From the NCBI GenBank assembly GCA_963841435.1, contig CAWJCS010000002.1, forward strand, positions 384,001-448,000: DNA of 64,000 nt, read 5' to 3'. A program made the translations under genes and the position numbers. The DNA comes from an uncultured delta proteobacterium (GTDB lineage: Bacteria > Myxococcota_A > Polyangia > Polyangiales > Polyangiaceae). The notes beneath the pieces were generated by a model. That model was not told the origin of the DNA, made no database searches, and worked only from the letters and a program-made list of their open reading frames with translations. Shown one piece after another: positions 6,791-34,340 of the stretch (its first letter is position 1; each line of letters opens with the position of its first letter).

Positions 6791-7189
6791 TCATGGGCAA
6801 CTCCTCGAGCTGACGGCCACTCCGGATGGCGCGATGCTGAACGCGATTTCACCCTTGTGCCCCAATCCATTCGCTTCGAGCACGTAGTGCCGGCCTGGCT
6901 CGAGTTTGGGGCAGCCCGGAAGGCCACTGCCATACGGCCACGTCGCCGCGGGAGTGATGGCCCCTGCGCACAGGCGGCTGGCCCCTCTGCTCCCATCTTG
7001 CCGGCGGATGGAAACGAACTCGACCTTCTCTTCTCCGCGAAGAAAGAGCCCACAGTCCTGGAAGGAGAAGACCAACCCTGAGGGGAATTGCATCACGTCG
7101 ATGCGGAGGTCGCGCGAGCACGCCAGCAAGCCGATGCCAAGTATCGTGACAGCGGGGGTCAACGGATGGACGCGGCGGCCGGCTCCCAT
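6791..7189 (-). CDS. Small lipoprotein, candidate immunity protein for the upstream RHS toxin tip
   Basis: 132 aa with TILGIGLLAC lipobox; GAGGAG upstream; begins 32 nt after the toxin stop codon. Confidence 0.6.
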   Translation of the reverse strand: MGAGRRVHPLTPAVTILGIGLLACSRDLRIDVMQFPSGLVFSFQDCGLFLRGEEKVEFVSIRRQDGSRGASRLCAGAITPAATWPYGSGLPGCPKLEPGRHYVLEANGLGHKGEIAFSIAPSGVAVSSRSCP

Positions 7190-7220
7190 GCTTAGTCATC
7201 TCCTCGAGCTTTCTCCGAGT

Positions 7221-10200
7221 CTACCGAGACACCACGAAACGAGCAATCTCGGCAAAAGGGGCCATGCCGCCAGGGCTCTTCACTAGGTCCTGCAAGACAT
7301 AGTCCTCGAACATGTGTGCTTGCTGCTCAACGCCCGCCATTAGGAAGCGCAAGAACATCTCGTGGGGGGCGCTGCTCGCCGCGTACGCGTACGGATCGAT
7401 CCCCAGGAGGGAGCCTCCGATACCCAAAGAAAGACCGTCGGCCGTGACCGAAAGGAAATGCCCGTGGGATCGTTGCCAAACGTGAAACGCCTCGTGGGCG
7501 AGCGTTCCGGCGGCGTTGAGACTCTTGAAATTGACTTCGTTCGCAGCGTTCGACTTCACAAAATAGCTGGGCTTGAGCCAGATCTTCCGGCCGTACGGAT
7601 TCATCCCCACCGCGAACTTGCGCAATGCGGCGGGCATCGCCTCGACGTCGATAGAGTCGTAGTCGAGCGAACCACCATAGTAGCGCTTCAGAAACGCCCG
7701 CTCGTTCGCCGTGAGCGGACGCTTTCCATCTGCGTCCACATGATTGATCGGGTCGTTCCCACAGTACGCGTACACGTTCGTGTCCCCAGCCCCGAACCCG
7801 ATCGGATCCTTCGAAAGCCAGCGTCCGAGCGCGCCCGAGTAGTCTCGCGCGCCGAAGCGGGTGTAGCCGGTGTAAGCGTCGTCGAGGCCGCCCGCGAAAC
7901 CGAAGGGCTGGAAACCGGGGTTGGTGTCGCCCGTGACGTGGCCGAAGGCGTCGTAGTCGAGCTTTTGTTCGACGACGCCGGTCTGGGCGTTGACGACGAG
8001 GCGCACGCTGCCGACGTGGTCCTTGATGACGCGGTAAGGGACGCCGGCGCGCAGGATGTAGTCGGGGGCGCCGCCGATGGCGTCGTCGGCGTAGATGAAG
8101 TGCATGAAGATGCCGGCAGAGTTGACCTGGCCGACGGGACGCAGGCCGTCGCGATAGACCCACGCAGCGTCGAACTTACCGTCCACCTGGCGGGCGACGC
8201 GGCGGCCGAGGCCGTCCACCTTGTAGCTGATGACTCGCGTCGTACCCGAGCGGTTCTGCGTGACGGACAGGAGGTTGCCGAGCGCGTCGTAGACGAGCTC
8301 GTTGGCGTCGTCGCCGTCGCTCATGCGCAAGAGGTCGCCCTGCGGAGTTGCCTCGACGTCGGTGCTACCGAAGCGCGTCAGGCGATCCTGAGCATCGTAG
8401 TCGGCGTCGGCGACGAGGGCGCCATCGACGCTCACCGAAGTGCGGTTGCCGTTCGCGTCGTAGTCGTACTCCGTCGTGGTGCCGTTGACCGTCTCCTTCA
8501 CCAGCCGGCCGAGCTCGTCGTAGTCGTAGTCGATGCCGCGCTCGCCGTTGCCGATGATTTCGTCGATGTGCGTGATGCGGCCCAGTGCGTCACGCTCGAG
8601 CTTCTCGGTGAAGTTGACGTTGCCCTGGAAGGCCGCACGCAGACGCGACGGCTCGCCAAAACCATTGTAGTCGGTGGCCGTGGTCACCGTGCCGAGCGTC
8701 GTGTTCGTGATGAACCCGCTCTTCGCGTCACGCTCGATTTGGTACGTGACGTTGTTGGCGGTGGCCGAGGTCACGAGGCCGTCGTCGTCGTACGTGAACT
8801 TCGCCGTGCTCGAGCCGTTGACGGTCATCGAGGCGAGGAAGAAATTCTCGTCGTACTTGGCGGTGACGCTGCCGTCGATGGCGCCTGACCAGGTGCTGCC
8901 CGTCCAGAGTGGCCCGTCGTGGCTCAGCGTGACTTTCACGCTGTCCGAGCGATTGACGGACGTGAGCATGCCGCCCGAGTCGTAGCCATAGCTGATGGTC
9001 GCGTCGGGGATCTCGAGCGACTTCAAGCGGCCGCTCGCGTCGTCGTAGTGAAAGTCGAGGTTTTGACCGTCGGAGCGCGCGATCTGCAAGAGCTGCCGGT
9101 CGTCGTTGTAGTCGTAGCGGGCGCCGCCCACGGGCAGGTCGTTCTTGCCCGACCCGGAAACGGCCGGGGGCGTGCTGAGCTCGAGCAGGCTCGTCTTGGG
9201 CTGGTACGCGAAGGTGTGCGCGCCGCGGCCCGGAGGCGTGAGCGACAGGAGATTGTCGTCGTCGTCGTAGTCGAACGTGACCGCTTCGTCGTCGGGGCGG
9301 AGCAGCGACTGGATGCGCCCCACGAGATCCGACTCGTACTTCACGCGGTTCCCTTCAGGGTCTTCGCGCTGGGTTAGAAAGCCGTTGGCGTCGTATTCAT
9401 AGGCGACGCGGCGGACGTTGCCGTCGGCGCTCGCTGTCGTCTCGATGAGGCGCCCGAGCTCGTCGTACTCGAAGTGCAGCGACGGCAGCCCCGCCGCGAC
9501 GACGTTCGGTGCGGCGGCCGCGCTCGTCGAGCGTCGTCGTTCTCTGCCGGCCCACCGGCGTCGTCGTCGTGATGCTCCGATCGTCACGCAGGTAGAGCGT
9601 CTCGAACAACCGACCGTTCACGTCGGTGAGCTCGTCCCATTCCTCGACCGACAGCGCATTTTTGATGTCCGTCAGGCGCTTGCCGCGCATCTGGGCAACC
9701 TCGAGCGTGGAGCCGCTCGGAAGCTTGGTGGTGACGGTGCCGGGGTAGAGGGCCTGAGCGCCAAAGGCGGGGTCAGGGAGCAGCAGCGCGGTGGTCGTGC
9801 TGCCGTCAGCGCTTTTGAGCGTCCGGCTGATGGCCGTGTCGTCCCAGCGCACGATGCTGCTGTCGGGCAGATGGACCACGCGCTCGAGCGTCCCGCCGAG
9901 CCCTGCGACGAAATCGTAGGTCGTCTGGCGGCCGGCAGCGGTGGTGACCGAAACGCTCGTGCCGCCTTCGATCGCAACGCGCTCCAGGGTTTCCGTGTAG
10001 CCCGTCGGGTCGGTCGTGCTCGTGAGCGCGCCGTCCACGTACACCGCGTTGGTGATGCCACCGAGCGGGTCGGTGACTTTGGAAATTAGATCCGCGTCGT
10101 ACTCGAACGCGGTATCCCGACCGAGCGGGTCCGTGACTTTGTCGATACGGCCGCGATCGTCGAGCGTGACTTTGGTTTCTTGCAGGAAGGGCCCCTTGAA

Positions 10201-13200
10201 GCCCGTCAGATTGCCGCTCGGGTCGCGGTCGACCAGCGTGACCTGGCCGTTCTTGTCCTTGAGCGTCTCGAGGTGACCTTGCTCGTCGTAGCCGAGCTCG
10301 AGCTCGGTGACGCCGGTCACGGCATCGATGGTCGCCTCGTGCCGCCCGCGCTCGTCGAAGCGGAACAGTGTGGTGCCGTCGGTCGAGGGGACCAGCGACT
10401 GATCCGCTGACAGATCGGGCAAGCCGGGCGCGACCTTGAAGACGCTTTCACGCGTGGCCACGAACAGCGCGCCGTCGCGCCCCACGGCGATGCCGTCCGG
10501 CTCGGTGATGCGCACCTTCTCGGCGAGCTGCCCTTCCTCGAGGCTGGCGTCGCCTCCACCCATGACGGTCTGGATCAAGCCCTCGGTCGTGACCCGGCGG
10601 ATGCGATCGTTCCATTGATCGGCGATGTAGAGCGAGCCGTCTTCCGACAGAGCGAGGCCGCGCGGGCCGTTGAGCTCGGCGTTCTGGGCGCTGCCTCCGT
10701 CACCGGAGAAGCCGGGCGTGCCGGTGCCGGCGACCGTCAGGATGATGCCGCCTGGCGTCACCTTGCGGACGCGGTGGCCGCCTTCCTCTCCGTCGACGCC
10801 GCGCTCGGAGATGTACACCGTGCCGTCGGGGGCCGCGACGACAGCGCTCGGCTCGACGAGCGTCGCCTCGCGCGCCGGCAAACCGTCCCCGCCTTCACCG
10901 CCACCTGCGAACACTTCGAGCACGCCGCCCTCGAAGCGAAACACGCGATCGATGTCGACGATGTAAAGCTCCTCCCGCGGCCCGAGGGCGAGCCCGTCTA
11001 CCTTCGCGAGGTCCGCCACGGCCACCGGATTGTCCGAGGCGGGACCGACGAGCGTGCTGACGGCTCCGCCCGGTGCGATGGCGCGCACGGCCTTCTTGCC
11101 GAAATCCGACACGATGATGGTGCCGTCGTCCTTGACCACGACCCCCTGGGGCGAGCCGAGCACGAGGTCGCCCGCCTCGCCGCTCGCTCCGGCGCCGGCC
11201 ACGACCGTCGTCACTCCCTCGGGGTCGATGCGCAAAATCCTGCCCTGCGGGTCGAGTGAGTCCTCTTGGTCGTCAGTGACGATCAGGCTGCCGTCGGGCG
11301 CGACGCCGATTCCGTCCGGCGTGCCGAGGTCTTCTTGATTGCTCGGGCGCGTGACGACGAGGGCCACGTTCTGCGCGGTGCGAAGGTCGCCCGTGCCGAA
11401 GAAGATGGTCTGGCTCGCCGGATCGTAGGCGTGCAAAACGTCGAGACCGAAGCCGCCGAGCGCGTAGCCCTTCGCATCCCAGACGCCGATGGGTACTTCC
11501 TGCACCTGGGACAGCACGGCGTCGCCGATCGGCGTCGTCTCCTCTGTGGTCCCGGGAATGCCGAAGCCTTCGCCCGCCGCGACTTCGCCGTCGAAGACGA
11601 AGCCGGTGACGACGCGCGCGATCTGCGGCCCCTGAACGAGCCGCCCGAAGCCGTCCTTGCCGTCCCACGACACGACCCGTTTCAGGTTCGGCTCGGGCGC
11701 GAGGGTCTCCTCGAGCGTCTGACCCGCGACCTCGACGACGGAGATCACCTGCTTTAGCCCCGCGGGAACGTCGTCCGAAAGCAACGGTAGCTCGAGCTGG
11801 AAACCGGGCCCGTAGCTCGTGGTGCGGTCGGATTGATAGTGAAGGGAATAGGGTGTCCCGGCGATCGGCACCGCTTGCGACAGCGCTTGCGGCTCGACCA
11901 CGGCGGCGCCGCGACGGGTCGGTTCGTCGAGGACGCGCGTCGCGATGCCCTGGACGTTCGGGGCGATCGCATCCGGGGGCGCCTCGACCGGGAACAGCAT
12001 GTCCCACGAGGAGAAGTGGTTGACGCGCGAGCGCCAGAGCGTCGCGCCCTTCTGGTAGCGGGCGCCGAGCGCGGCGCGTTCGTCTTCGGTCACGCCGGCG
12101 TCGAGCGCGGCGCTCGCAGCGTCCTCGGCGCCGTCGCCGTCGAGATCGAGGACGGCCTTGCCGTTGACGATGTCCAGGACCTCGATGACGCGGCCCGTGT
12201 TGCCGTGCTGCCACTGGCTCTGCTTCTTTTCGTAGTAGCCGAGCGGGACGGAAGAGCCGACGGGTAGGTCGAGGAAGTTCTCGACGTAGACGCTGACCGG
12301 GGTGGAAAGCGCGACGCTCGTGGCGCCAAGCGCGTCGGCCTCCGCGACATCGATCGAGAGGCCGTAGCTCAGCCCACCGGAGACCGGGAGCGTGCCGGGA
12401 GCGAAGCGGGCGGTCGAGACCCAGTTTTCGGCCGTCGGCGGCTCGAAGGGGTACTCGGTGACGCGCAGCGACGCGGCGTCGAGCTTCTTCTGGTCACCGC
12501 CGGGAAGCCGCGCCGTGAGCGTCGTCCCCGGGCGGAACACGAGAAAGGGCTGGCGGGCCCCGAACGCGTCGTCGATCGGGTCGCCGACGGCGGTCTGGGT
12601 CCCGGTGCTGCCGGAACGCACGGACGAGAGGTGCTCGCTCGCCGCGATCATGCCGACCTCGGGGAGCCGGTCGTAGCGCTGCCAGCCGGGCAGGGCGCTC
12701 CGCTCGACGCTCAGGTAGCCCCCGCGCTCGTAGCGGAACACGAGACGCCCGCCGCCATTCACCGCCAGGTCGAACAGGCCGTCGGGGCGCGATTCGGTGT
12801 AGCCGTACTCGTCGTGTCCCACCACCGAGACGCGCACGCCGGCGAGGGCCTCGCCGGCGCGATCCACGATTTTACCACGCACGATGGCCACGCGGCGCCG
12901 GTCGAACGCCGAGGGTTTCGCATCCTTTTGCAGTGGGTCCGCGCCGGAACAAAGAAACGTGGCTGCGAGGTCCACCGTGGTTGCCACCGAGCGATCGAGC
13001 GCGGGGGCGAGGCCACAAAAAGGCGTGGTCAGCCGGCAGTCGAGATCGTCGCAGTCGGCGCGGCCATCGTGATCATCGTCGGCGCCGTTGTCGCAGGCGG
13101 TTTCCGTAGCGCCAGGCTCGGCGGAAGGACCGGCACCATGGGGCGCCTTTTCGCCGCCGCAAGCGGCGACGAGCAAGAAGAGCAGGCACAGGGAAGCCCG

Positions 13201-13221
13201 AGGGCGAGGGGGGAGCGTCAT
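7221..13221 (-). CDS. Teneurin-like lipoprotein / RHS polymorphic toxin (Cys/Asp motif, carboxypeptidase-regulatory-like domain, FN-plug, NHL propeller, YD shell, RHS core, HExxH tip); +1 frameshift ~9508
   Basis: MTLPPRPRASLCLLFLLVAAC lipobox; ETACDNGADDDHDGRADCDDLDC; VRGKIVDRAGEALAGVRVS...DGLFDLAVNGGG; NHL repeats (TVAGTGTPGFSGDGG); YD repeats; RDYSGALGRWLSKDPIG...YAYCGNDPINHVDADG; AHEAFHVWQ. Joins ORFs 9397..13617 and 7221..9587. Confidence 0.88.
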
Positions 13222-13229: not shown

Positions 13230-13256
13230 ATCGGGCGCGCGAAAACGCTCGTTGCA
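13230..13256 (-). promoter_or_regulatory. Putative sigma-28-like promoter (TGCAACG-N14-CCCGAT) for the teneurin-like toxin
   Basis: Minus strand TGCAACG agcgttttcgcgcg CCCGAT, 8 nt before ATG 13221. Confidence 0.7.
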
Positions 13257-13288
13257 ACAAAGTGCGTCGGGCGCGAAAACAATCGAAG

Positions 13289-13315
13289 CGCAACGAGCGG
13301 GGCGCGGCGACCGAA
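13289..13315 (+). promoter_or_regulatory. Putative sigma-28-like promoter (CGCAACG-N14-ACCGAA) for the first Flp pilin
   Basis: CGCAACG 13289-13295, ACCGAA 13310-13315, just upstream of GTG 13324 / ATG 13327. Confidence 0.6.
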
Positions 13316-13533: not shown

Positions 13534-13560
13534 TGCAACGGCCGAAATGGCCCGACCGAA
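13534..13560 (+). promoter_or_regulatory. Putative sigma-28-like promoter (TGCAACG-N14-ACCGAA) for the second Flp pilin operon
   Basis: TGCAACG 13534-13540, ACCGAA 13555-13560, intergenic. Confidence 0.65.
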
Positions 13561-13873: not shown

Positions 13874-14428
13874 ATGGCCCCTTCCCTGATCGTCGACTCC
13901 GCCTCGCTTCTCGTGGGAGGCGTGGGCGCGGTCTGGGACGCCCGTTCCGGGCGCATCCCCAACCGCCTCACGCTCCCCGCGGGGGCCCTGGCCATCGTGC
14001 TTCACGTGGCGCTCGGCGGACTTTCAGAGGGCGTGGAGAGCATCCTCGGGCTGTTGCTCGCCGGGCTCTTGCCGTTCGTGCTTTCGAAAGCCACCCGTGG
14101 CCGCGCCATCGGTGGCGGCGACGTGAAGCTGTTCGCGGCGCTCGGCGCCCTCGAGGGGCCACTCGTCGGGCTCCAAATAGAGCTCTGTGCCTGCATTTTG
14201 CTCAGCACGTTCGCGCTCTTGCGCCTGGCCTTCGCGGGAAAGCTCCTTCGAGTGCTCGGCAACGCCCTCCGCTTGTTCGCCAACCCGCTCCTGCCGGCGC
14301 GCTTTCGAAAGCCCCTTTCGCCCGAGGCGCTCACCGAGCTTCGCATGGGCCCGGCGATTCTCGGCGCGGTCTTTTACGCGTGCTTCGCCAACCAGCTGGC
14401 ACGGTGGGTGCCGTGGCTCGCACTCTGA
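13874..14428 (+). CDS. cpaA: Prepilin peptidase, A24 family (CpaA/TadV)
   Basis: WDARSGRIPNRL and IGGGDVKLFAALGA catalytic Asp motifs; hydrophobic. Confidence 0.92.
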   Translation: MAPSLIVDSASLLVGGVGAVWDARSGRIPNRLTLPAGALAIVLHVALGGLSEGVESILGLLLAGLLPFVLSKATRGRAIGGGDVKLFAALGALEGPLVGLQIELCACILLSTFALLRLAFAGKLLRVLGNALRLFANPLLPARFRKPLSPEALTELRMGPAILGAVFYACFANQLARWVPWLAL

Positions 14429-14442: not shown

Positions 14443-15358
14443 GTGCGCTACGGCGCACGCTCGGTGGCGGCCACGGGTCGCGACGAGCGTGGCGTCGTGT
14501 ACCTCGAGTTCTTGCTCGCGTTCATGCCGGTGTTCGTGCTGTTCCTCGCCGTGTGCCAGCTCTCGCTGCTCTACACGGGAGCGCTCGTGGTCCGGCATGC
14601 TGCCTACGCGGCCGCGCGCTCCGCCATCGTCGTGCTCGAGGACGACCCGGCGCGCTACGAACAGGTGCCGCGCGGCATGCTCACGACCGAGCCCCCCGCG
14701 CCCGGCACCGGGCCGGCGTCGCTACTCGCCACCCTGGGCCTTGCCACGGGCGCGAACCCGGCGGCGCTCGCGCAGCAGGCCATCTCGTCGGTCGAACAAG
14801 CCGCGGCGGGGAGCTCGAACGACCACGATTTTCCGCCTCAGCAGGGCGCCCGCATGGTGACGATCCGCACGGCCGCCTACCTCTCGCTCATCACCCTCGC
14901 GCCCAAGGCCCCGCCCGCGGGCTCCCGCAACGATACGCTGAGAGCCAGCATCTCGCAGGATTTCTTCGCGGATCTCGGCCTCGGCCCTCGCGTACACGGA
15001 CGCCGCGGCCGTCGTCACGCTGCACGTCGGCGGCACCGAGGCGCTGGCGGCGGAGCCCATCCCGCTCGACGCCCCCGTCACCGCGAGAGTCACGTACCTC
15101 TACACCTGCAAGGTTCCCATCGTTCGCGCGCTCATCTGCCGCACGCTCGCCTCCCTTTTGCCCGCGGGTGACGAAGGGCAGCCTGGAAATGGTGACGAGC
15201 CCACGCCGGCGCAGGCGCTCGCCGACCGCCTTCGCCTCGCGGAGCGTCCAAGCTGGCTCACGATCGTGATGGAGCCCGGCGCGCGCGTCAGCGTGATCGA
15301 CGCTGCGGTGACGCTGCCGAACCAGGGCGCTCACTACGAGCACACGGAGGGCGGATGA
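14443..15358 (+). CDS. TadE-like pseudopilin; +1 frameshift ~14984
   Basis: DERG/VVYLEFLLAFMPVF...HAAYAAARSAIV; continues in the frame of ORF 15158..15358 (VTARVTYLYTCKVPIV...VTLPNQGA). Confidence 0.8.
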
Positions 15359-17172
15359 CCCGCCACGAAACCCGGCTCGACGAGCGCGGCGCGATGGCGC
15401 TGGTCACGGTCTTCTTCGCCGTCTTCGCCGTGGGCATGCTGTACGCGTTCGTGGGCAGCGTCGAAGCGGTGTTGTTTCGCGAGCGCATGCAGGATGCCGT
15501 CGACTCTGCGGCGCTCTCGGGCGCCGTGATGCACGCGCGGAGCATGAACTTCATCGTGCTCGTCAACATGGTGATGGCCGCGCTGCTCGCGATCCTCATC
15601 GCCATCAAGCTCGCCGAGACGCTGGCCATCATCGGGATGATCATCGCCGCGGTGCTCGCCTGGCCGACGTTCGGCGCGAGCCTCGCCGCCATCCCCGTGC
15701 TCAAGCCCGTGCAGGAAGCGTTGCACGACGCGTACGACTCGCTAAAGGGGCCCGTCGACACCGCGCTCGAGGGCCTGCACACGCTCTCGAGCGCCGTCCA
15801 GGCGGGCGCCGTCGTCGCTGCCGAGCTCCAGGCGCAAAGTGATCTCGAGAAGCACTGGAAGCCTCCCGTGAAATTCGGCGCGGTGATCGGGCGCGTCGAG
15901 CTCACGCTGCCGCTCGAGGACGACTCCTTCGGCGTGCTGTGCGAGCACGGCGGCGAAACGGCCGCGGAGCTCGCACTGTTGCCGCTCGATCCGGTGTTCG
16001 ATGCCGTCCCACCGTTCGCCAAGGCGAAAGGCGCGCTGGTGTCCGCCACCGGGGAGATGACCGGCGCCATGCAGAGCTGGTTCTGCGGGGGAAGCAACGA
16101 CCACGCCCCCACGTTCGAGCGCACGGTCGAGCGCGCCTATCCGCGCTTCGCGGCGAACGACCTTTGCGAGGACACGAACGCGCCGCCCGAGGAGTCGGCA
16201 GACGCCTGCAGCGAGGCCAGCCGGTTCGACGAGGACTCGACGCCCGACAAGGACACGGGAAAGTGTCGAGCTGGGACGAATTGCTCGATCGGCGGGCCGT
16301 ACGAGCAGCGCGTCGCCGCGGCTCGCGTCCAGTGCGACCCGCAAACGCAGCCCACGCCGTTCTTCTACTGGTATCAGCTCCGACAGGGTCACGTTCGCTA
16401 CCTCTGGAACGTCAACCACTGGGAGCGGCAGGAGCCGACCTACGACCCTCCCACCGTCTACCCGCCCGATCTCGAGCATGCGCCGTCGACGACGCGCCCT
16501 CCCTGCGGCCCGCCCCGCACCAACCGCGTTTACGCCGACGGCTACAACGTGACCGTTCGTCGCGCCAGCGACGTGAACGAGGTGCTGCCGGTGTGCAGCA
16601 CCGAGCAGCCGCCGCTCGCTGCTCCGTTGATCACCCGAGGAACCGACCCGGACGAGCCCATCTATTCGGCGCCGATCACCTTCACGGAGGTCACGCACAT
16701 CCTGGGCTGCAAGAAGAACGTGCAGGTGTCGCTCGGCGGCGGGGACGACACGCCGCCCCAGAGCGACGGCGACTCGCGCTCACCCAAGCGCGTGCTCGCC
16801 GGGGTCGATCTCGGGGCGGAGGATTTCCAAATCCGCGGCTTCGTGGTCGGCGATTTCGACGCGGGCAGCGCGTCACGGCTGGTCCGACTGTCGCTCTTCG
16901 GGCGACGTGCACCGGAACAGCCGCTCGGTGAGCTCAGAGCGCTCGGCAACGTCGCGGTGGCTCAGACCGAATACTTCTACGACGGCGCGGAGGGTCGTGA
17001 CGCTTGGATGTGGAACATGAAATGGCGCGCGCGTCTCAAGCGCTTCAAGGTGCCCGAGTCGGGCGCGCTCGACGGGTTGACGGGCGCCTGCGGCGCGGGA
17101 GAAGGGGGCGAGACGGGCTGCGGCGCGCTCGGCGACGTGCTCGGGCGGCTGGGCGATCTGATCGCGCATTGA
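15355..17172 (+). CDS. TadG-like minor pilin/adhesin with Cys-rich extracellular region
   Basis: DERG/AMALVTVF...MQDAVDSAALSGA Tad N-terminal motif; start overlaps the upstream stop (ATGA). Confidence 0.8.
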   Translation: MTRHETRLDERGAMALVTVFFAVFAVGMLYAFVGSVEAVLFRERMQDAVDSAALSGAVMHARSMNFIVLVNMVMAALLAILIAIKLAETLAIIGMIIAAVLAWPTFGASLAAIPVLKPVQEALHDAYDSLKGPVDTALEGLHTLSSAVQAGAVVAAELQAQSDLEKHWKPPVKFGAVIGRVELTLPLEDDSFGVLCEHGGETAAELALLPLDPVFDAVPPFAKAKGALVSATGEMTGAMQSWFCGGSNDHAPTFERTVERAYPRFAANDLCEDTNAPPEESADACSEASRFDEDSTPDKDTGKCRAGTNCSIGGPYEQRVAAARVQCDPQTQPTPFFYWYQLRQGHVRYLWNVNHWERQEPTYDPPTVYPPDLEHAPSTTRPPCGPPRTNRVYADGYNVTVRRASDVNEVLPVCSTEQPPLAAPLITRGTDPDEPIYSAPITFTEVTHILGCKKNVQVSLGGGDDTPPQSDGDSRSPKRVLAGVDLGAEDFQIRGFVVGDFDAGSASRLVRLSLFGRRAPEQPLGELRALGNVAVAQTEYFYDGAEGRDAWMWNMKWRARLKRFKVPESGALDGLTGACGAGEGGETGCGALGDVLGRLGDLIAH

Positions 17173-17182
17173 CGAGGCGACC

Positions 17183-23177: not shown

Positions 23178-23178
23178 G

Positions 23179-24093: not shown

Positions 24094-24926
24094 CTCATTG
24101 GGTGGACGTTCACAGGCCGGGCGCCGCCGCCGAGCGGTTCGCCCTCGAAGGTACGCTCGTTTTCATCGTCGAGGATGGCGAGGGTAGGCTCGTGCCGCGC
24201 GACGACGCCTCGGGCCGCCCCGGCATCGAGCTGGTTCCGGGAAGCGCCGGCGTGAAAATCGCGGTGCGACGGGGCTTTCCAGGTCGAGCTCGGGCACACG
24301 GCGCGGAGGTGCAGCAAACGCTGCTCGCCTGGGGCGACGATCTGTTCGTGGACGACGTGCGCCTCGCGTTCCTTCAGCGCGCCAAAGGCGGAAGCCGAGT
24401 GTTCGTGCTCGTCGCGACGGTGCTCGCGGGCGCCACGGTGGTCCTCGGCGCGCTCCGCGAACCGAGCGCGCGCGGTAGAGCGAACGATCCGAAGCCACCC
24501 CCGCTCGCCGCGGCCGAAAAGAGCTGCACTGCGTCCGGCGAGGCCGCGGAAGCCCGCGCGCGCGAAGCCGAACGACGCGCGGACGCCAAGCGCGCGCGCT
24601 ATCCATTCGATCCGAGCGACGGCGTGGAGACGCTCCCCCTGCTCGAGGAGGCCGCCTCGTGCTTCCGCGCGGCGGGTCGCATCGAAGACGCGCGGCGCTC
24701 GCGCGCGGCGCTCGACACGTGGCGCGAGCGCCTCGACGGCGACTACGCCTCGCTCAGGCTCGCTCTGCGCGGTGCGTTGGCGGAAAACCGCAGCAACGCA
24801 GCCCTCGAGGCGGTGCGCGATCTGGAGAGCCTCTTGTCCGGGAGGCGCGACGATCCCTACTTCGAGTGGCTGGAAAGCAAGCGCCGTGAGCTCGAGCGGA
24901 CGCTCGCACGCTCGTCGAAGCGCTAG
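24090..24926 (+). CDS. Membrane protein with degenerate FHA-like N-terminus and helical periplasmic domain
   Basis: GTGA overlap with tadC; beta-rich N-terminus ending LAWGDDLFVDDVRLAF; central TM helix. Confidence 0.65.
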   Translation: MTHWVDVHRPGAAAERFALEGTLVFIVEDGEGRLVPRDDASGRPGIELVPGSAGVKIAVRRGFPGRARAHGAEVQQTLLAWGDDLFVDDVRLAFLQRAKGGSRVFVLVATVLAGATVVLGALREPSARGRANDPKPPPLAAAEKSCTASGEAAEARAREAERRADAKRARYPFDPSDGVETLPLLEEAASCFRAAGRIEDARRSRAALDTWRERLDGDYASLRLALRGALAENRSNAALEAVRDLESLLSGRRDDPYFEWLESKRRELERTLARSSKR

Positions 24927-26383: not shown

Positions 26384-27043
26384 GTGCCTGCGAACGCAAC
26401 CACCCGCTCGCCCCGCGTTCTCCTTGTGGCCACCGCGCTCTTCGCGTGCCTGGTCTGCTCGGCCTGCGGCGCAAGGGGTCCCGAGGATGCCGCCAGCGTG
26501 GGCGCCCACGACGGGGCGCCGAGCGCGACATGGCTCGCCGCGGAAGGCGAGCGGGCGGCGCTCCGCGGCGACACGGTGCGCGCCGAGCAGTACCTCGCCC
26601 TCGCGGTCGAGCGCGGGTACGACGAGCGCCGCGCTCTTCCCCTGCTGCTCTCGGTTTGCATCAGAGGGTCGCGGCTGCGCTCCGCCCTGAACCACGCCGA
26701 GCCCTACCTGCGCGATCACCCCGACGATCAATCGCTCCGCTACCTGGTCGCCACGCTCGACGTGAGCCTCGGCGACGAAGCGGGCGCACGGCGGGAGCTC
26801 GAGGCGCTTTTACGGGGCGACCCTGCCCACGGGGCCGCCCTCTACCTGCTCGGTACCCTGGAGCTCGACCGCGAGCCCGAGCGGGCAGCGGATCTGTTCC
26901 GGAGCTACCTCGAGAAGGAGCCGGACGGTCCGCACGCCGCTGACGTACGCGAACAACTGCGTGACCTCGACCTCGAGCGAGCGCACGCCACGACGCAGCG
27001 AAGCGCGCTCGCGGCGCGGGCAGCCAAGCGGGGCTTCCGATGA
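26384..27043 (+). CDS. TPR lipoprotein, TadD/pilotin-like
   Basis: ALFACLVCSAC lipobox-like signal; TPR helices (ALYLLGTL...AADLFRSYLEKEPDGPHA); start position uncertain. Confidence 0.7.
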   Translation: MPANATTRSPRVLLVATALFACLVCSACGARGPEDAASVGAHDGAPSATWLAAEGERAALRGDTVRAEQYLALAVERGYDERRALPLLLSVCIRGSRLRSALNHAEPYLRDHPDDQSLRYLVATLDVSLGDEAGARRELEALLRGDPAHGAALYLLGTLELDREPERAADLFRSYLEKEPDGPHAADVREQLRDLDLERAHATTQRSALAARAAKRGFR

Positions 27044-28161
27044 TTCCGACGAGCGTGTACTCGTCGTCGATCCGCACGTTCTTGGCGCCCGTTGCCGAGC
27101 TCCTCGACGACGCGAGCGTCACCGAGATTTTGGTGAACGGGCCGGATAGCGTGTTCGTCGAGCGGAAGGGGCGCCTCGCGCGTACGGAGGTACGGTTTCG
27201 CTCCGCGGATCAGTTGCTCTCGGCGCTCAGGGTCGTCGCGCAGTACGTCGGACGCCCGCTCGACGAGCATCACCCCATCCTGGAAGCGCGCCTGCCCGAT
27301 GGTTCGCGCTTGGAAGCGGTGCTCGCGCCCATCGCCTCACCGGGCCCCTCGCTGTCGATTCGCCGTTTCTCCAAGGACAAGCTCACGTTGGAGCGACTTT
27401 TGGAGCACGGTGCGCTCACGTCGGATGCGACCGAGACGCTGCGCGTGCTCATCGAGTGCAAGCAGAACGTCGTCGTCGCCGGGGGCACCGGGTCGGGGAA
27501 GACGTCGCTTTTGAACGCGCTCTCCTCGCTGATTCCACGCGACGAGCGCGTGATCGTGATCGAGGATGCGCGCGAGCTCGCTCTGCAGCGCGAGCACGTC
27601 GTGCAGCTCGAAACCCGCGCGCCGGACGCTCGCGGGCAAAACGCCGTCACCGTCCGGGATCTGTTCAAGGCGTCGCTCAGGATGCGCCCCGATCGCATCG
27701 TGCTCGGCGAGATCCGGGGGGGCGAGGCACTCGACCTCGTCCAGGCGATGACGAGCGGGCATGGCGGCTGTCTGGCCACCGTTCACGCCACATTTCCCAT
27801 CGACACCTTGAACCGGCTCGAGACGCTCGCCCTGATGGGGGGCGTCGATTTGCCGCTGGCCGCGCTGCGGGCGCAGCTCGCGTCCGCGGTCGACATCGTG
27901 GTTCAGACGGCTCGCTTGCGGGACGGACGGCGCATGGTGACGCACGTGACCGAAGTCGTCGGCACGGACCCGGTGCGGGGCTACCGCATCAAGGATCTCT
28001 TCGTGGCCGTGCCAGGCGAAACTGCGTCGGGGGCCAGCGGACCGATGGAGCTCGTTGCGACGGGTGTGCTGCCCGACTGTCTGCCGATGCTCAGAGCCCA
28101 CGGCGCGGATCTGCCGCGAGCGGTGCTCGACCACGCGCGGCGTGCCCGTGACGCTGCTTGA
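27040..28161 (+). CDS. cpaF: Second CpaF/TadA ATPase, no FHA domain
   Basis: GGTGSGKTS Walker A; LRMRPDRIVLGEIRGGE; MTSGHGGCLATVHA. Confidence 0.93.
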   Translation: MIPTSVYSSSIRTFLAPVAELLDDASVTEILVNGPDSVFVERKGRLARTEVRFRSADQLLSALRVVAQYVGRPLDEHHPILEARLPDGSRLEAVLAPIASPGPSLSIRRFSKDKLTLERLLEHGALTSDATETLRVLIECKQNVVVAGGTGSGKTSLLNALSSLIPRDERVIVIEDARELALQREHVVQLETRAPDARGQNAVTVRDLFKASLRMRPDRIVLGEIRGGEALDLVQAMTSGHGGCLATVHATFPIDTLNRLETLALMGGVDLPLAALRAQLASAVDIVVQTARLRDGRRMVTHVTEVVGTDPVRGYRIKDLFVAVPGETASGASGPMELVATGVLPDCLPMLRAHGADLPRAVLDHARRARDAA

Positions 28162-29833
28162 ACGGAGAACCAGGATGCTAGACGATCAGCGAGTATCGAG
28201 GATCTTGGGCATGGAGCTTGCTACTCGTCGCGGCTCGCTCAGGCTCTGGTTTCGCCCCGGCGACGACCGCGCTTTCGTGGTCGGCAACTGTGCCGGCGCC
28301 GACCTGCGCCTGACGAGCGCCAGCGCCGGCGCGGTGGCGTTCCATCTGGAGCGACGAGGTGCGCGAGTCGAGCTCTTTCCCGGCGATGCCTCGCGCGAAA
28401 TCTACGTCGATGCCGGACGCGTGACCCGACCGGTGCTGCTCCGGCAGACCTCGGTCATCGACGTCGGCGAGGATCGAATCGTCGCCACGACTTTCGACGC
28501 GACCGAGCTCGCCCAGACCGTGACGTTTCCGCGCGCAGGTGCCGAGCGCGACCGCGTCACCGCGCCGCAACGCGAGAGCGACCCAACCCGACTCGGCCTG
28601 CCGGCCCCCGAGCTCGCCGGGCCCGTGACCGACGCGCTGCCCACCGTCGCCTATGCGCCGGGCCGAACGCGCGAGCCGGCGCCCTCGCCTGAGCCCCCGC
28701 GCTGGGAACGCACGGAGCCGCTGAACTTCGCCGAGCGCCCGGTCGTGCGGGAGCCGCTGGGACCGACGGGCACGCAGATCGTCAGCGCTGCGGAGCTCAA
28801 CCCACCCAGGGCTCCGGCGCCCGAGCCGCGACCCGACGCGGTCGAGCGAAGCGAAACGCCGGCGCCCCCGACTCCCGCGCCCGAAGCGGACCCGGACGGC
28901 GTCGCTCTCACTCGAAAGCGCGACGCTGCTTCCGAGCCGCCTGCGCCGAAGCAAGCGACGATCGCCGATGAGCCGGCGCAACGCAGCGCACCCTCGGCGG
29001 CCTCGCCGCCGGCTCACGTCGACAAGGCGCCGGAGCGGCGCCGCAAGGACATCGGCCGCGCCACCACGGCGCTCGATGTGCGAGCGCTCGCACCGCCGAT
29101 GGTTGAAAAGGCGCCCGCGCGGCCGGCGACACGGCGCCCGAGCCCAGCTGTCGAGCAGCCCACGCTCGTGTCCCCTCCGGCGCGGGGCGCCGGCTTTTTG
29201 GGCGCGTTAGGGCGCTTCGCGCGGGGGCTCGCCACAGCCGGCAAGCGCTCACCCGCGGAGAATCTGGCGGCGGTCGGACGCGTCGCACGAAAGCGACCGC
29301 TCGTCGTCTTCACGGTTTCGATCATGCTCGCGTGTGGTGGTGCGGTGGCTCTGACGGCGCTGTCGCGACTCGGACCGAGGAGCGCCCCTCGCACGCCGCA
29401 GCCGCCACTTCACTCGCAAGTCGCGCGCCCCGCCGGCGACGCGAGCGCCAGAGCTTCCGGCGCGCTACGCCCCGCGCCGCTCGGCGGCCCGCGCACCGCG
29501 ATCTCCGGGAGCGCACCACCCGCGGCGAGCGAAAGCCCCCCGCCCCCGACCAGCGCCGTCCCCGAGCTCTCGATCCGCGCACCGGCGCCCGCTGCCGAGC
29601 CTTTCGCATCGCCGGCGCCCGCCGGGGCCGATCCGGACGTCGCGGCCGCCATCGACGCGCTCGTCGCTGGTCGCGATGCCGAGGCCCGCCTCGCGTATGC
29701 ACGCCTCGCGTCGCGCCCGGGTGCAAACCCCGCCTACGCCGCGCTCGCCGCGCTGCTCACGCGTGCCGCGGGCGACGTGTGCCAGGGAGCCGCCGCCGAG
29801 GACCACCCGTTCTGCCCGGAGGTGAAGCGATGA
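28148..29833 (+). CDS. Pro-rich membrane protein with degenerate FHA-like N-terminus
   Basis: Beta-rich N-terminus (FVVGNCAGADLRL...IDVGEDRIV), long Pro/Thr-rich region, one TM helix; start uncertain (28148 or 28175). Confidence 0.65.
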   Translation: MTLLERRTRMLDDQRVSRILGMELATRRGSLRLWFRPGDDRAFVVGNCAGADLRLTSASAGAVAFHLERRGARVELFPGDASREIYVDAGRVTRPVLLRQTSVIDVGEDRIVATTFDATELAQTVTFPRAGAERDRVTAPQRESDPTRLGLPAPELAGPVTDALPTVAYAPGRTREPAPSPEPPRWERTEPLNFAERPVVREPLGPTGTQIVSAAELNPPRAPAPEPRPDAVERSETPAPPTPAPEADPDGVALTRKRDAASEPPAPKQATIADEPAQRSAPSAASPPAHVDKAPERRRKDIGRATTALDVRALAPPMVEKAPARPATRRPSPAVEQPTLVSPPARGAGFLGALGRFARGLATAGKRSPAENLAAVGRVARKRPLVVFTVSIMLACGGAVALTALSRLGPRSAPRTPQPPLHSQVARPAGDASARASGALRPAPLGGPRTAISGSAPPAASESPPPPTSAVPELSIRAPAPAAEPFASPAPAGADPDVAAAIDALVAGRDAEARLAYARLASRPGANPAYAALAALLTRAAGDVCQGAAAEDHPFCPEVKR

Positions 29834-30504
29834 GAATGCTGCGTGTGCTCGTGCTGGTTTTGGTCACGACCGCTTGCCACCGCGCGCCACCGCCCGAACG
29901 TCCGCGGTTCGCGGTTGCGGTTCGGCTCACCGTGGACGGCCACGAGCCCTTGCCGGGCGCGATCATCCTCAGGGACGAACAACCCTTCGGCGTCACGGAT
30001 GCGGAGGGTCGCGTGCTCTCGACGATTGGCGCCGTGGAAGGTCAGAACGTCAAGCTCAGGGCCCGCTGCCCCGCAGGGTTCGTCGATGGCAAGGTCGAAG
30101 CGTCCGTGCGGCTCGCGCTGACGAGGCGCGTCGAAAGCCGCGCTCCGGAAGCGCAGAAGGTGGAGCTCACCTGCAAGAAGCTCACCCGCGCCGCGGTGCT
30201 GGTCGTCCGTGCGCCGGGGGGTGGCACCCTACCGGTGCGAGTCAACGGACAGCCGGCCGTTACCACCGACGCGGCCGGCAACGCCCATGTGCTGATGGAA
30301 GTGCGCCGCGACCTTGGAGCCGTCGAGGTCGAGATCGACACGAGCGACAAGAAGCACCTCGTGCCCAGAACCCCGCGTCGGCTCTTTGCGCTCGACGGCA
30401 GGGACGCCGTGCTCGTGCTCGAGCAAAGCTTCTCCGTTCACAACCGACAGAAGGCGCCCGCCACGCCCGCTCCCCAGCGGCACGTCCCCACGAGAATCGA
30501 CTGA
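29830..30504 (+). CDS. Hypothetical lipoprotein with two beta-sandwich-like domains
   Basis: MRMLRVLVLVLVTTAC lipobox; GVTDAEG and TTDAAG repeats; ATGA overlap. Confidence 0.7.
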   Translation: MRMLRVLVLVLVTTACHRAPPPERPRFAVAVRLTVDGHEPLPGAIILRDEQPFGVTDAEGRVLSTIGAVEGQNVKLRARCPAGFVDGKVEASVRLALTRRVESRAPEAQKVELTCKKLTRAAVLVVRAPGGGTLPVRVNGQPAVTTDAAGNAHVLMEVRRDLGAVEVEIDTSDKKHLVPRTPRRLFALDGRDAVLVLEQSFSVHNRQKAPATPAPQRHVPTRID

Positions 30505-30509
30505 GCCGC

Positions 30510-30833
30510 ATGACGGGCTCGGCCAACACCAAGAAAGCGGCTTGCCGGCAACCAACGGGGGACCCGGACTTCGATCCTCCGGCATCGGTAGAAACGTTGC
30601 TCGTTTCCGGAAACCTGATGCCCGACCTCGACGGGCGCGTGCTCGGCGCGCTCGTTCCGTGGGTCTCCGAGCTCACGCACGAGGAGCTCGGCTGGGTGCG
30701 TGCGGTGCTGCTCGCCCAGCTGACGATGGATCCGGAGCTGCGTGGTCTCGTGGCCCGCGTCGCCCGCGCTCGGGAAGCCGCGCCGAGCGACGCTCCGGGT
30801 GGCCCCCTCGCGCCGTCCGGGCGAAGGGAGTAA
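30510..30833 (+). CDS. Small helical hypothetical protein, paralog of the next gene
   Basis: EELGWVRAVLLAQLTMDPELRGLV aligns with the downstream protein; start uncertain. Confidence 0.5.
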   Translation: MTGSANTKKAACRQPTGDPDFDPPASVETLLVSGNLMPDLDGRVLGALVPWVSELTHEELGWVRAVLLAQLTMDPELRGLVARVARAREAAPSDAPGGPLAPSGRRE

Positions 30834-30846
30834 GCTGGATGCCGTC

Positions 30847-31119
30847 ATGAGCGCTCAGGGAAGCTCGGGAGCTCTCGATCGAGCCGGGAACGGCGGCAGC
30901 GCCGCGCTCGAACGGCTACGCCGCGGCGAGATCACGCTGGACGCGTACCTCGATTTTCGTGCAGACGAGAGCGTCAAGGCGCTCTCAGGCTCCATCCCGG
31001 AGGAGCGGCTCGAGATGATCCGTCTTGCCATGCGCGAACAGCTCGCCACCGATCCGGTGCTGCTCGCGATGGTGGAGGCCGTGACCGGCGGCAAGCCCGA
31101 GGCGAATCCGGCGCGCTGA
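30847..31119 (+). CDS. Small helical hypothetical protein upstream of the sigma factor
   Basis: LERLRRGEITLDAYLD...ERLEMIRLAMREQLATDPVLLAMV. Confidence 0.65.
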   Translation: MSAQGSSGALDRAGNGGSAALERLRRGEITLDAYLDFRADESVKALSGSIPEERLEMIRLAMREQLATDPVLLAMVEAVTGGKPEANPAR

Positions 31120-31134: not shown

Positions 31135-31875
31135 TTGACTGACCGAGCGCCGACACCGCTGAGACCTCGCGCACCGGGTGTGGAGGACCCAGCGGAAGTG
31201 CTCGCCAGATTCCACGAGCACCTCGAGCTCGTGAACATCATCGCGGCGCAGGTGCGCCGGAGCGTCGGCCCGTCCGCCGATCGCGACGACCTCGTTGCCA
31301 ATGGGCGCGAAGGCTTGCTCGAAGCCGCGCGGCGCTACGACGCGACCCGGGGCGTCCCCTTCAAGCTCTACGCCAACTACCGGGTGCGCGGAGCCATGAT
31401 CGACGGCGTCCGGAAGTCCGCCGCGCTGCCGCGCCGCACCTACGAACGCCTCGTCGCGCTCCAGGCGTCGAGCGCGGTGAGCGAAGGTGAGCTCGAGCAT
31501 TCCGGCGTTGCGAAGTGGTTGCCGACGGACGTTGCCGAAGCCGAGGATCTCTTGGCCGAGCACCTTTCGGGCATGGCGGCGGCCGCTGCTCTCGCCACGC
31601 TGACGGGCCGCGGCTACGACGGCGACGCTCGCACCGAGCCCGGAGCGTCCGTTTCGCCCGAAGAAGAGCTGTCGCGCGCGGAGCTCATCGCCCGGGTGAA
31701 GCAAGCCGTCGAGGAGCTGTCGCCGGAGGCTGCGGCCGTCGTGAGGCGACACTATCTCGAAGGCGAGCGGCTCGAAGACATCGCGCGCGACTACGAGATG
31801 AGCAAATCGTGGGCGAGCCGCCTGCTCACGCGTACCACCGCTCGGCTCGCGAAACGCCTCGCGTCACTCGCCTAG
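31135..31875 (+). CDS. RNA polymerase sigma factor, FliA/WhiG (sigma-28) family
   Basis: DDLVANGREGLLEAARRYDATRGVPFKLYANYRVRGAMIDGVRK...LPRR (region 2 and 3 start); C-terminal HTH LEDIARDYEMSKSWASRL; start uncertain. Confidence 0.88.
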   Translation: MTDRAPTPLRPRAPGVEDPAEVLARFHEHLELVNIIAAQVRRSVGPSADRDDLVANGREGLLEAARRYDATRGVPFKLYANYRVRGAMIDGVRKSAALPRRTYERLVALQASSAVSEGELEHSGVAKWLPTDVAEAEDLLAEHLSGMAAAAALATLTGRGYDGDARTEPGASVSPEEELSRAELIARVKQAVEELSPEAAAVVRRHYLEGERLEDIARDYEMSKSWASRLLTRTTARLAKRLASLA

Positions 31876-31899
31876 CGCCATCCAACGAGGAGCGAGTGG

Positions 31900-33162: not shown

Positions 33163-33182
33163 GGGCGCCAAGCTACCATTCT

Positions 33183-33209
33183 TGCAACGCAAGCGCTGCC
33201 GTGGCCGAT
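33183..33209 (+). promoter_or_regulatory. Putative sigma-28-like promoter (TGCAACG-N14-GCCGAT) for the kinase at 33222
   Basis: TGCAACG 33183-33189, GCCGAT 33204-33209, between the two divergent kinases. Confidence 0.7.
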
Positions 33210-33221
33210 TGCGTGAGGTCG

Positions 33222-34340
33222 ATGCCGACCTCAGAGCACCCGCCGTCGTCCGACCCGTTCGAGGGCACGCCCTACCGTGCGCTCGAGCGACTCGCTGCGG
33301 GCGGCATGGGCGAGGTCTTCGTCGTGCAGCATCGTCAGCTCGGCCGCACCTTCGTGGCCAAGGCACTGCATACGCCGCTCTCTCGGCACCCCCAGGTCGT
33401 GGATCGCATGCGACTCGAGGCCCAGTCGCTCGGTCGTCTCAACCACCCGAACATCGTCTCCGTGTCGGGGTTCGGTCTCACCAAGGACGGCCGTCCGTTT
33501 CTGGTGATGGAGCATCTGGGCGGTCGCACCCTCCAAGAGGAGCTCGCCGAACGCGGTCGACTGCCCGCGAGCGAGGCGCTCCTCATCGCGGACCAGCTGC
33601 TCGCCGGGCTCGAGGCAGCGCACGGGCTCGGCATCGTCCACCGCGACGTGAAGCCGGACAACCTCTTCCTCGCCGACGTGCCGAACGTCGGGCGCGTCCT
33701 CAAGATCCTCGACTTCGGCGTCGCTCGCGTGCTGCCCGACGCCCCTCCGACCGCGCCTCGTCCGCTGGCGGTGCGGACCGAGACCGGCGCCGTCGTCGGC
33801 ACGCCGCGGTTTCTGAGCCCGGAAGCGGCCAGTGGCTCGCGCGTGGACGTCCGCGCGGACCTCTACGGCGTGGGGCTCGTGCTCTACGCGATGCTCACCG
33901 GCAGAGGCCCGTTCGATCACCTGGCCGACGACGACCTCGTGCCGGCCCATGCGCTCGAGGCGCCGGCGGCGCCGTCCACCATCGTCGGAGCGGAAGTCTC
34001 GCCGCGCCTCGATCAGATCGTGCTCCGCGCCCTGGCCAAGGATCCCGCGGAGCGCTTCCAGACGGCTCCGGATCTTCGGGCGGCGCTGAATGGGCTCGCG
34101 GGCGATCGCTCGCTCGGGAGCTCGCCGCCTGCGCCGGTCACGACCCGGGTGGCGCCCCCGCTATCGGTGCCGCAAGGCTCGGGCTTTGGCGTGACCGACC
34201 ACGAGAGCGACCGTCGTCCAAGCGTTCGCCCACCTCGCGGCCCGTCGAAGCTCGTGCTCGCCGTGTTGTTTCTGCTCGGCCTCGTCGTGTCCGGCGTCGG
34301 AGCGGCGGCGCTCGTCGCGCTTTTGCTCGGCCGTCGCTGA
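33222..34340 (+). CDS. Ser/Thr protein kinase with C-terminal TM helix
   Basis: LAAGGMGEVF, HRDVKPDN, DFGVA, FLSPE, DLYGVG; hydrophobic C-terminus. Confidence 0.93.
   Translation: MPTSEHPPSSDPFEGTPYRALERLAAGGMGEVFVVQHRQLGRTFVAKALHTPLSRHPQVVDRMRLEAQSLGRLNHPNIVSVSGFGLTKDGRPFLVMEHLGGRTLQEELAERGRLPASEALLIADQLLAGLEAAHGLGIVHRDVKPDNLFLADVPNVGRVLKILDFGVARVLPDAPPTAPRPLAVRTETGAVVGTPRFLSPEAASGSRVDVRADLYGVGLVLYAMLTGRGPFDHLADDDLVPAHALEAPAAPSTIVGAEVSPRLDQIVLRALAKDPAERFQTAPDLRAALNGLAGDRSLGSSPPAPVTTRVAPPLSVPQGSGFGVTDHESDRRPSVRPPRGPSKLVLAVLFLLGLVVSGVGAAALVALLLGRR

Follow-up and report, generated by a model that had tools for sequence, protein, structure and literature searches.

A gene for a predicted teneurin-like toxin divergent from a Tad locus

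The window analyzed here is a 64,000-nt stretch of the genome of an uncultured member of the Polyangiaceae (contig C2:384001-448000; 7.8 Mb in six contigs, 95% complete). It contains a gene encoding a teneurin-like protein (TLP), a relative of the animal proteins that wire nerves, and, running away from it on the opposite strand, a locus for a Tad (type IVc) pilus. The TLP gene starts at 13221 (- strand) and the first Flp pilin gene at 13327 (+ strand). Within the 105-bp spacer, at 13231..13314, are back-to-back promoter sites of the form GCAAC-N16-CCGA, one at 13255 on the minus strand and one at 13290 on the plus strand. Both the spacing and the paired sites had been pointed out in an earlier, sequence-only reading of this DNA, and both were confirmed.

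The TLP gene is interrupted near 9,500 and so occupies two reading frames. The first frame (9397..13221, - strand) encodes a lipoprotein signal (LVAAC), an acidic double-disulfide repeat, TTR, TIP, FN-plug, and NHL propeller domains, and the start of the YD shell. The second frame (7221..9506, - strand) encodes the YD shell, an RHS core with two aspartyl-protease motifs, and the C-terminal domain, and it matches the TEN_YD-shell and RHS families of Pfam as well as TIGR03696. The N-terminal 581 residues align with the Bacillus TLP of PDB 9ifo (E 9e-140, positions 30-585), and across both frames PF24329 (weak, E 0.009), PF25021, and PF25023 were found. Upstream of the plug, the TTR and TIP domains match PF25020 (E 3e-22), and the alignment to the Bacillus TLP is continuous over this stretch, which animal teneurins lack. 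The aspartyl-protease motifs, DPIG and P-x4-DADG, lie 24 residues apart, the second with Ala in place of Pro. By these sequence criteria the window protein is a member of the bacterial TLP family (PMC13018210; PDB 9ifo), with which it shares the TTR-TIP-FN-plug-NHL-YD order of the shell, the signal peptidase II (SPII) signal, the RHS cleavage motifs, a variable, predicted toxic C-terminus, and a small downstream gene. It differs from the TLPs described there in that its clade is fixed next to, and apparently co-regulated with, a Tad locus.

The teneurin-like toxin gene proposed earlier is present, but it is split. The break is probably an assembly error and not the mark of a pseudogene, because the assembly also breaks rpoB into several frames and has frameshifts in 3 of 51 tested genes. 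The nine orthologous TLP loci of four relatives are single open reading frames of ~1,950 to 2,040 aa. A 151-nt soil-DNA record (depth of ~2) from a run of scattered short records covers the position without showing a break, which is weak evidence alone.

The C-terminal domain (7221..7718, - strand) is a predicted HExxH zinc metallopeptidase of the VgrG2b-CT/Tpe (DUF4157-like) family. This 165-aa domain behind the RHS motifs matches the VgrG2b effector domain (PDB 6H56) by profile (E 3e-25), its model has a mean pLDDT of 92.8, and Foldseek assigns it to the VgrG2b fold with a probability of 1.0 and a TM score of 0.66. The catalytic motifs, HEAFH and EQQ, are kept in 42 homologues of the domain. 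Starting 31 nt behind the toxin stop is the candidate immunity gene (6791..7189, - strand), encoding a 132-aa lipoprotein with the lipobox LLAC and five cysteines. Toxins of the VgrG2b-CT/Tpe family are reported to kill from the periplasm, and their immunity proteins to be periplasmic, lipoproteins, or membrane anchored, with cysteines (PMC6899460). The lipobox and the five cysteines fit the envelope-located immunity proteins of this type; in sequence, no homology to them was found. VgrG2b-CT/PA0261 and the Tpe-Tpi pairs (PMC6899460; PDB 6H56) have in common with the window the metallopeptidase fold and a small cysteine-containing envelope protein encoded downstream. The difference is that the domain is carried there on the spike of a type VI secretion system and here is fused to a TLP shell; no type VI sheath gene was hit in the window's genome. 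Two observations speak against the pairing. First, the lipoprotein had no homologue among 27 candidates. Second, the G004 genome has a similar C-terminus (35 to 40%), but a different, membrane protein is encoded behind it. The claim of a toxin-immunity pair nevertheless gained ground, as the C-terminus falls in a proven family of periplasmic antibacterial toxins with envelope-located immunity proteins, and we consider an antibacterial pair very probable.

When 15 TLP C-termini were compared, most were unrelated and the window type recurred once. The variable tips and the small genes behind them differ at each locus, DUF2247 and ankyrin proteins being among the downstream products. This comparison shows that toxin tips have apparently been exchanged between loci. 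The targets would be either prey or rival myxobacteria, and the swapped tips and private immunity genes favor rivals.

On the other side of the spacer, the Tad genes follow one another on the plus strand. Two Flp pilin genes (13327-13509 and 13626-13850, the second with its own site at 13535) and a prepilin peptidase gene (TadV/CpaA, 13874..14428) precede three genes for Tip-type minor pilins (14491..17683): a TadE-like pilin split across two frames (from 14491, start approximate), a large Cys-rich TadG-like pilin (15355-17172), and a second TadE-like pilin (17183-17683). By analogy, the three would be arranged as the KilL/M/N Tips. Behind them comes a conserved membrane-anchored protein (17671..18630) found in this position in Polyangiaceae Tad loci; its C-terminal domain is PA1624/DcrB/BamC-like, and the fold search (best Z of 9.8, rmsd of 2.6, 93 aligned residues) identifies only a common alpha/beta domain. 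The Tad core (18726..24093, with a cpaB site at 18655) encodes CpaB, secretin, an FHA-fused CpaF ATPase (20680-22320), TadB, and TadC. The FHA fusion, also noted earlier, was borne out by PF00498 (E 4e-12). A conserved membrane protein (24102..24926) comes next, of which three orthologues match PF16697 (5e-5 to 2e-4), an FHA-like (YscD cytoplasmic) N-terminus, while the window copy and two close orthologues do not. A TPR lipoprotein in the TadD/pilotin-like position and a second CpaF ATPase without FHA (26426..28161) come after the core throughout the order. A remnant of an IS200-like element lies within the locus (25335-25937).

All core families (Flp, TadV, CpaB, secretin, CpaF, TadB, TadC, and TadE/G) are thus present, with Pfam matches for two Flp pilins, the prepilin peptidase, three TadE/G proteins, CpaB, secretin, FHA-CpaF, TadB, and TadC, and further for the second CpaF, a sigma-70 family sigma factor, and two Ser/Thr kinases. 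No family hit for TadZ/CpaE or RcpB was found among the 46 window proteins scanned. The locus that had been called complete is so for its core only, and it has two ATPases.

Recurrence of the pairing and its promoter system

The adjacency is not unique to this genome. Among 40 relatives, G008, G004, and G015 have the closest TLPs (48 to 51%), at two loci each in G004 and G015, all divergent from an FHA-CpaF gene, and further loci with the TLP-Tad link were found in G010, G208, and G205 and in two named records. A tree of 61 TLP N-termini gave a close clade of 32 entries, or 29 after removal of 3 near-duplicates; fragments of <150 aligned columns and distant TLPs with an open reading frame running off the locus were excluded from the counts. 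An flp gene lies within 2.5 kb in 15 of the 29 distinct close-clade loci (three of them show flp only). The other loci comprise 2 with Tad genes further along the contig, 4 that abut a sigma/kinase/PEGA module, 4 that are unlinked, and 4 that are too short for a verdict. Metagenomes gave a similar picture: flp or other Tad genes lie upstream in 5 of 12 close TLPs, compared to flp in 0 of 68 distant ones (80 loci kept of 117; 35 of the 68 distant loci show at least 2.5 kb upstream). A scan of genome contigs with a single query yielded 4 real TLP loci of 22.

In the genus, a close TLP is present in 10 of the 11 genomes with a close Tad secretin (65% or more) compared to 0 of the 36 without one (47 genomes, 63 to 100% complete; one of the negatives, G203, is unpublished). 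Carriers fall into three clades of an rpoB tree of 27 genomes, with noncarriers, including a three-contig genome, nested among them (G203 was left out, and 19 genomes of the genus had no rpoB hit). A good example of independent recruitment is found in G005 and G201, where a TLP of a second lineage stands head-to-head with flp1 of a second Tad lineage, the G201 copy being decayed. Because these genomes combine another TLP with another Tad lineage, TLP recruitment to the spot before flp1 appears to have happened at least twice. Moreover, the TLP-flp spot is kept despite rearrangement in G208 and G205. The neighborhood check thus upheld the adjacency across relatives, in two separate TLP and Tad lineages. 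That the linkage is real we regard as virtually certain, and the distributions show that TLP and Tad were, by all appearances, gained and lost together.

Some variants of the arrangement were seen. Two related islands have, between TLP and flp, a gene of the TraB/PrgY/GumN family (L067:9732-10304 and L070:9919-10719). At L088:7638-8165, the head-to-head partner of a TLP is a lone Flp pilin with a low-complexity tail of 100 residues; within 8 kb there is no further Tad gene. A weak CpaF-like match of ambiguous status lies 8 kb downstream of a distant TLP in L347.

The promoter motif is rare, occurring ≤200 nt upstream of only 34 of the 6698 called genes of the genome. In the window, sites lie at 735(+), 567(-), and 33184 (kinase), in addition to those of the spacer, the second flp gene, and cpaB. 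A Gibbs search on 31 flp and cpaB upstream regions alone returned TTTC..GCA.C-N-G.CCGA. Against a background of 6,694 regions, the matrix derived from these Tad genes placed the upstream regions of 13 of 15 close TLPs, unlinked ones included, in the top 1%; of 15 distant TLPs (starts guessed from lipoboxes), only one reached the top 5%, namely the Tad-linked copy of G005. Scanning the whole genome with the matrix revealed no clear regulon beyond the island, the 548 sites at a score of ≥13 being mostly background. At L200:8068-10928 (C2:1,076,000 of the same genome), a motif site lies ahead of three genes in the neighborhood of kinases, one small and two of the TPR/PEGA type; they may be an outlier of the island regulon.

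The island encodes its own FliA/WhiG-like sigma factor (31180..31875, + strand). Its match to TIGR02479 (E value of 1.6e-29, 103 bits) stays below the cutoff of 189.6, and by sequence it belongs to a Polyangiaceae subfamily of FliA-like factors. The -10 box of the motif, CCGA, resembles the sigma-28 consensus. A single core FliA-like sigma gene was found in all 5 single-hit noncarrier genomes of the genus (G215, G019, G199, G202, and G013), to which islands add a divergent copy; the island copies sit on long branches of their own, separate from the core copy, of which each genome has one. The -35 box varies from island to island: it is GCAAC in the window, G008, G208, and L089; GAAAC in G015 C21, G018, and G217, where sigma region 4.2 reads MHKSW; GCA[T/C/G] in G015 C15, G004 C107, and G165; and GCCCG in G004 C10. 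Two islands of one genome have different boxes, and the box follows sigma region 4.2. Within an island, -35 identity was 0.53 compared to 0.19 after shuffling (44 sites; 0 of 10,000), and the TLP site has the island's commonest variant in 7 of 9 cases.

Two points count against so specific a match. First, the -35 variants map onto three or four related island clades, so independent changes are few and the shuffle P value overstates the case. Second, six motif-bearing genomes (G010, G207, G095, G164, G160, and G005) show the core sigma only. Because of these genomes, and because G208 and G004 have the sigma gene on another contig, GCAAC sites may be read by the core copy as well. With these reservations, the comparisons show one promoter motif, matched to the predicted island sigma, ahead of the pilins, the Tad core, the kinases, and TLP. 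The earlier view of a locus that unites apparatus, effector, kinases, and a dedicated sigma gained support, in that the toxin, pilus, and kinase promoters share a motif that covaries with the island sigma, and we are confident that a sigma of the FliA-like family co-regulates them. Island-specific sigma-promoter pairs of this kind would be natural orthogonal regulatory circuits.

A pilus as the possible means of TLP delivery

Two gaps in the literature mirror each other. For TLPs, no obvious delivery machinery was found, and how the toxins reach their targets "remains to be elucidated" (PMC13018210); the main text of that paper has no hits for pilus, pili, or Tad, and its supplements may list gene neighborhoods. 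For Kil and other predatory Tad pili, the toxic effectors are described as unknown (PMC12075869), and the paper has no hits for RHS or teneurin. The gaps meet here, where a TLP and a Kil-related pilus occur repeatedly under one promoter system and sister loci fuse toxins directly onto pilins, and both become testable by simple deletions. This suggests that the pilus supplies the missing means by which TLP toxins get to their victims.

In the mechanism that we propose, TLP, as a Sec/SPII lipoprotein, would carry a YD shell that contains the C-terminal domain and cuts itself at the RHS core, as in known families. Upon induction, the cell would assemble a two-ATPase Tad pilus whose Tip has three pilins; the pilus would grip a neighboring bacterium and pull it against the surface-anchored TLP. 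TLP would stay lipid anchored while the shell releases the toxin into the target envelope, where a VgrG2b/Tpe-type metallopeptidase, going by its known relatives, would kill from the periplasm and the envelope lipoprotein would protect the producer. The gatekeepers of assembly at the contact site are probably the kinases and FHA domains. We lean slightly toward this reading, in which the Polyangiaceae island is mobile, co-regulated, and used for contact attack in this manner; whether the pilus is needed for TLP killing, or strongly boosts it, we consider evenly balanced. A complex prediction for the TadG-like pilin (residues 75-605) with TLP TTR/TIP scored 0.00 twice without controls and counts neither way.

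The pilus had been called Kil-like. By its published description, Kil of Myxococcus xanthus is likewise a Tad-type machine with an FHA-fused CpaF directly behind the secretin, a three-pilin Tip, an extra Flp, and further FHA-like proteins (PMC8460266, PMC12075869). Several extra FHA proteins, including KilD, are present in Kil, and two weak FHA-like proteins accompany FHA-CpaF in the window. However, Kil is defined by a single FHA-ATPase and the absence of TadG, RcpB, and TadD (PMC8460266), in two separate clusters, whereas the window has two ATPases and a TadD-like TPR lipoprotein in a single cluster, and adds its own sigma, kinases, and a linked candidate toxin-immunity pair. The partner of Kil is a needleless type III secretion cluster; the window's genome has one SctV/FlhA-family gene, isolated on contig C6 and without the motif. 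The Tip families of Kil (Tip1-4) are reported almost only in Myxococcales (PMC12075869), and Tad genes in four Polyangiales genera (PMC10196010). The FHA-ATPase and the kinship to Kil thus stand, and the identification with Kil does not: the locus is a TLP with a Tad family member, plausibly Kil-like in action, yet not Kil.

The main rival to pilus-aided killing is that pilus and TLP act independently, a mobile sigma-kinase cassette having gathered surface genes for the same situation, with the pilus used for adhesion or predation. Several observations weigh against our preferred reading, and most of them fit this one. First, most TLPs have no Tad link. In the family, 87 of 160 genomes have FHA-CpaF and 40 of these a TLP, and in 0 of the 40 do the two lie within 80 kb on one contig, many genomes being fragmented; in the rest of the phylum, TLPs occur in 13 of 76 genomes, 0 of the 13 on a contig with a listed CpaF. 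Outside the Tad-linked clades, no adjacency was seen in the wider Myxococcota. Second, each partner occurs alone: close-type Tad without close TLP in G191, G118, and G154, sigma-kinase-PEGA-TLP cassettes without adjacent Tad in G003, and TLPs where the close Tad type was not found (G019 and G006) and in Bacillota. Third, co-divergence of TLP and Tad is moderate (r of 0.1 to 0.6), and mirror-tree analysis picks no specific Tad partner; co-transfer alone accounts for co-occurrence and co-divergence. Finally, independent pairs on supported branches number only four, with three or four concordant and none discordant (P of 0.125 to 0.25). Against independence, two separate lineages put TLP at the same place before flp1, and that spot outlasts rearrangement in G208 and G205.

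Pilin-toxin fusions also argue against it, since they physically tie the window's Tad family to toxins. Genes encoding a Flp pilin, a PT-HINT domain, and a variable C-terminus lie directly behind the Tip genes in G201 (L309:6178-7943) and G016 (L084:9801-11747), both in distant-type Tad loci, with an immunity-like gene behind the G201 copy. A search for such fusions (P0004-P0039 among proteins) gave 70 relatives. Of these, 35 carry an Flp motif at the N-terminus and fall into four classes by their C-terminus, one of which is shared with the Tad-linked TLP of G004 C10. None is present in the window. Flp pilins have been named once as carriers of ARC toxin domains (PMC12605009). Taking both sides together, we judge independent action rather unlikely. 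The fusions suggest, tentatively and with less confidence than we have in the contact-attack island, that two-ATPase Polyangiaceae Tad pili may be a platform for polymorphic toxins, with one toxin pool, private co-diverged sigma-promoter circuits, and two loading modes: Flp-pilin-HINT-toxin fusions would be built into the fiber and release themselves, and the pilus would bring teneurin-like capsules to the target. If true, this would be the first delivery route for bacterial teneurins and would supply the first identifiable effectors of a Kil-related pilus.

A closer mechanical tie, in which the Tad machine is a dedicated exporter or carrier that brings TLP to the surface through the secretin or raises it on the Tip, would explain the divergent co-regulated layout and a lipoprotein signal without a known surface route. 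Type II secretion, by analogy, exports pullulanase. Tip pilins have been proposed as toxin vehicles of Kil (PMC12075869), and sister loci have pilin-toxin fusions. Yet a folded 200-kDa shell is presumably large for a secretin, and none of the Tad proteins stands out clearly from the rest in its co-divergence with the TLP N-terminus. Because TLPs exist without the close Tad type, direct secretin export is less likely than grip-and-pull, and we consider a dedicated exporter distinctly unlikely.

The island looks mobile because it is patchy, duplicated, rearranged, and bordered in three loci by an integrase-ParB-holin element. This element adjoins the Tad end in G015 (twice) and G008 (L151, L153, L154, L069, L073, and L075). 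In four loci the sigma module is found on the far side of TLP, and in the window and at least two other loci on the far side of Tad. These features, with two islands per genome, private sigma and promoter variants, and islands in G015 and G004 that are nearer to one another than to the paralogues in their own genomes, would also suit a selfish element in which pilus contacts help the island spread and the toxin removes noncarriers. However, no such bordering element is next to the island in the window's genome, no tRNA gene was found in the window and no TLP in viral contigs, and the Tad family is widespread and TLP-free elsewhere. We consider a selfish element improbable. The bordering element itself is conserved over 20 kb of mostly unknown genes, with a tyrosine or serine integrase, ParB, a holin, and a weak endolysin match; no capsid family was hit among 24 proteins scanned, and it is possibly an undescribed myxobacterial provirus or integrative element.

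Lastly, TLP might be no weapon at all but a regulator of the pilus or an adhesion or recognition protein, like Bd0109 or animal teneurins. Bd0109, a YD-repeat protein co-transcribed with the Tad genes of Bdellovibrio and proposed to control pilus extrusion (PMC3818213), is the nearest precedent for a Tad-linked YD/RHS gene, and the TLP paper leaves communication roles open (PMC13018210). As in the window, a YD/RHS gene there accompanies Tad genes, in this case in a predator, and the Tad promoter is read by FliA, a control that has been proven (PMC5430801). The differences are that Bd0109 is described as a periplasmic pilus regulator, not a teneurin-fold toxin with a variable tip and an immunity gene, and that FliA there is the global flagellar sigma, whereas here an island copy appears to have altered -35 specificity (PMC3818213, PMC5430801). 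The swapped enzymatic C-termini, the intact HExxH and second Glu motif, and the immunity-like gene behind each tip make a nonweapon role highly improbable. The sequence-only reading knew of no described Tad-teneurin linkage. In the open-access literature, which leaves subscription papers uncovered, we too found no description of a link between Tad and teneurins or polymorphic toxins; a Tad-linked RHS/YD gene, though not as a toxin, is on record in Bd0109. A bioRxiv preprint (10.64898/2026.07.08.737194) has no hits for RHS, toxin, or Bd0109.

Other genes of the island and window

Between the second CpaF gene and the sigma gene, a block on the plus strand (28211..31119) encodes a Pro-rich membrane protein with a weak FHA-like start (from 28211), a lipoprotein (29836-30504) and a small protein (30847-31119) that are both kept in related islands, and another small protein (30618-30833). 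Beyond the sigma gene are a small conserved protein (31900-32157, - strand) and divergent Ser/Thr kinase genes (32287-33162, - strand; 33222-34340, + strand). The site at 33184 is present, but the leftward kinase (starting at 33162) has no own-strand site here (score of -0.4), though relatives have one.

The unit, first placed at 6791..34340, reaches further left. A Ser/Thr kinase gene whose 5′ part lies at 1..441 (- strand; motif site at 567) runs out of the window (C2:382807-384441), and behind it, left of the window, is a TPR/PEGA gene that is part of the unit. The kinase is a member of the sigma-kinase module, and G165, G003, G208, and metagenome loci have its homologues between TLP and sigma. 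A predicted lipoprotein with a Gly/Cys-rich N-terminal half and no Pfam hit (771..2588, + strand) presumably belongs to the island on the basis of its motif site at 735. G003 has four extra sigma-kinase-PEGA cassettes (L294-L299). A full TLP is encoded in two of them and a large RHS protein in one; all four are rich in the promoter motif, and none adjoins a Tad locus.

The window's genome has a second, distant TLP gene on contig C1 (L197:9163-17058), in several frames and with orphan RHS-core pieces behind it; no motif site was called upstream. Converging on the last kinase gene is a gene for a large lipoprotein with an HExxH metalloprotease domain of the MXAN_6640 family (34493-37267, - strand), of which no homologue was seen in related islands. 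Further along, two globin genes lie next to a gene for a DUF4388-ParA/MinD fusion (39913-42096), and an IS66 element is found near the window end (60750-62994). A stretch of lower GC content (46779-56810) encodes a hybrid histidine kinase with ~10 PAS domains next to a second, GAF/PAS hybrid kinase.

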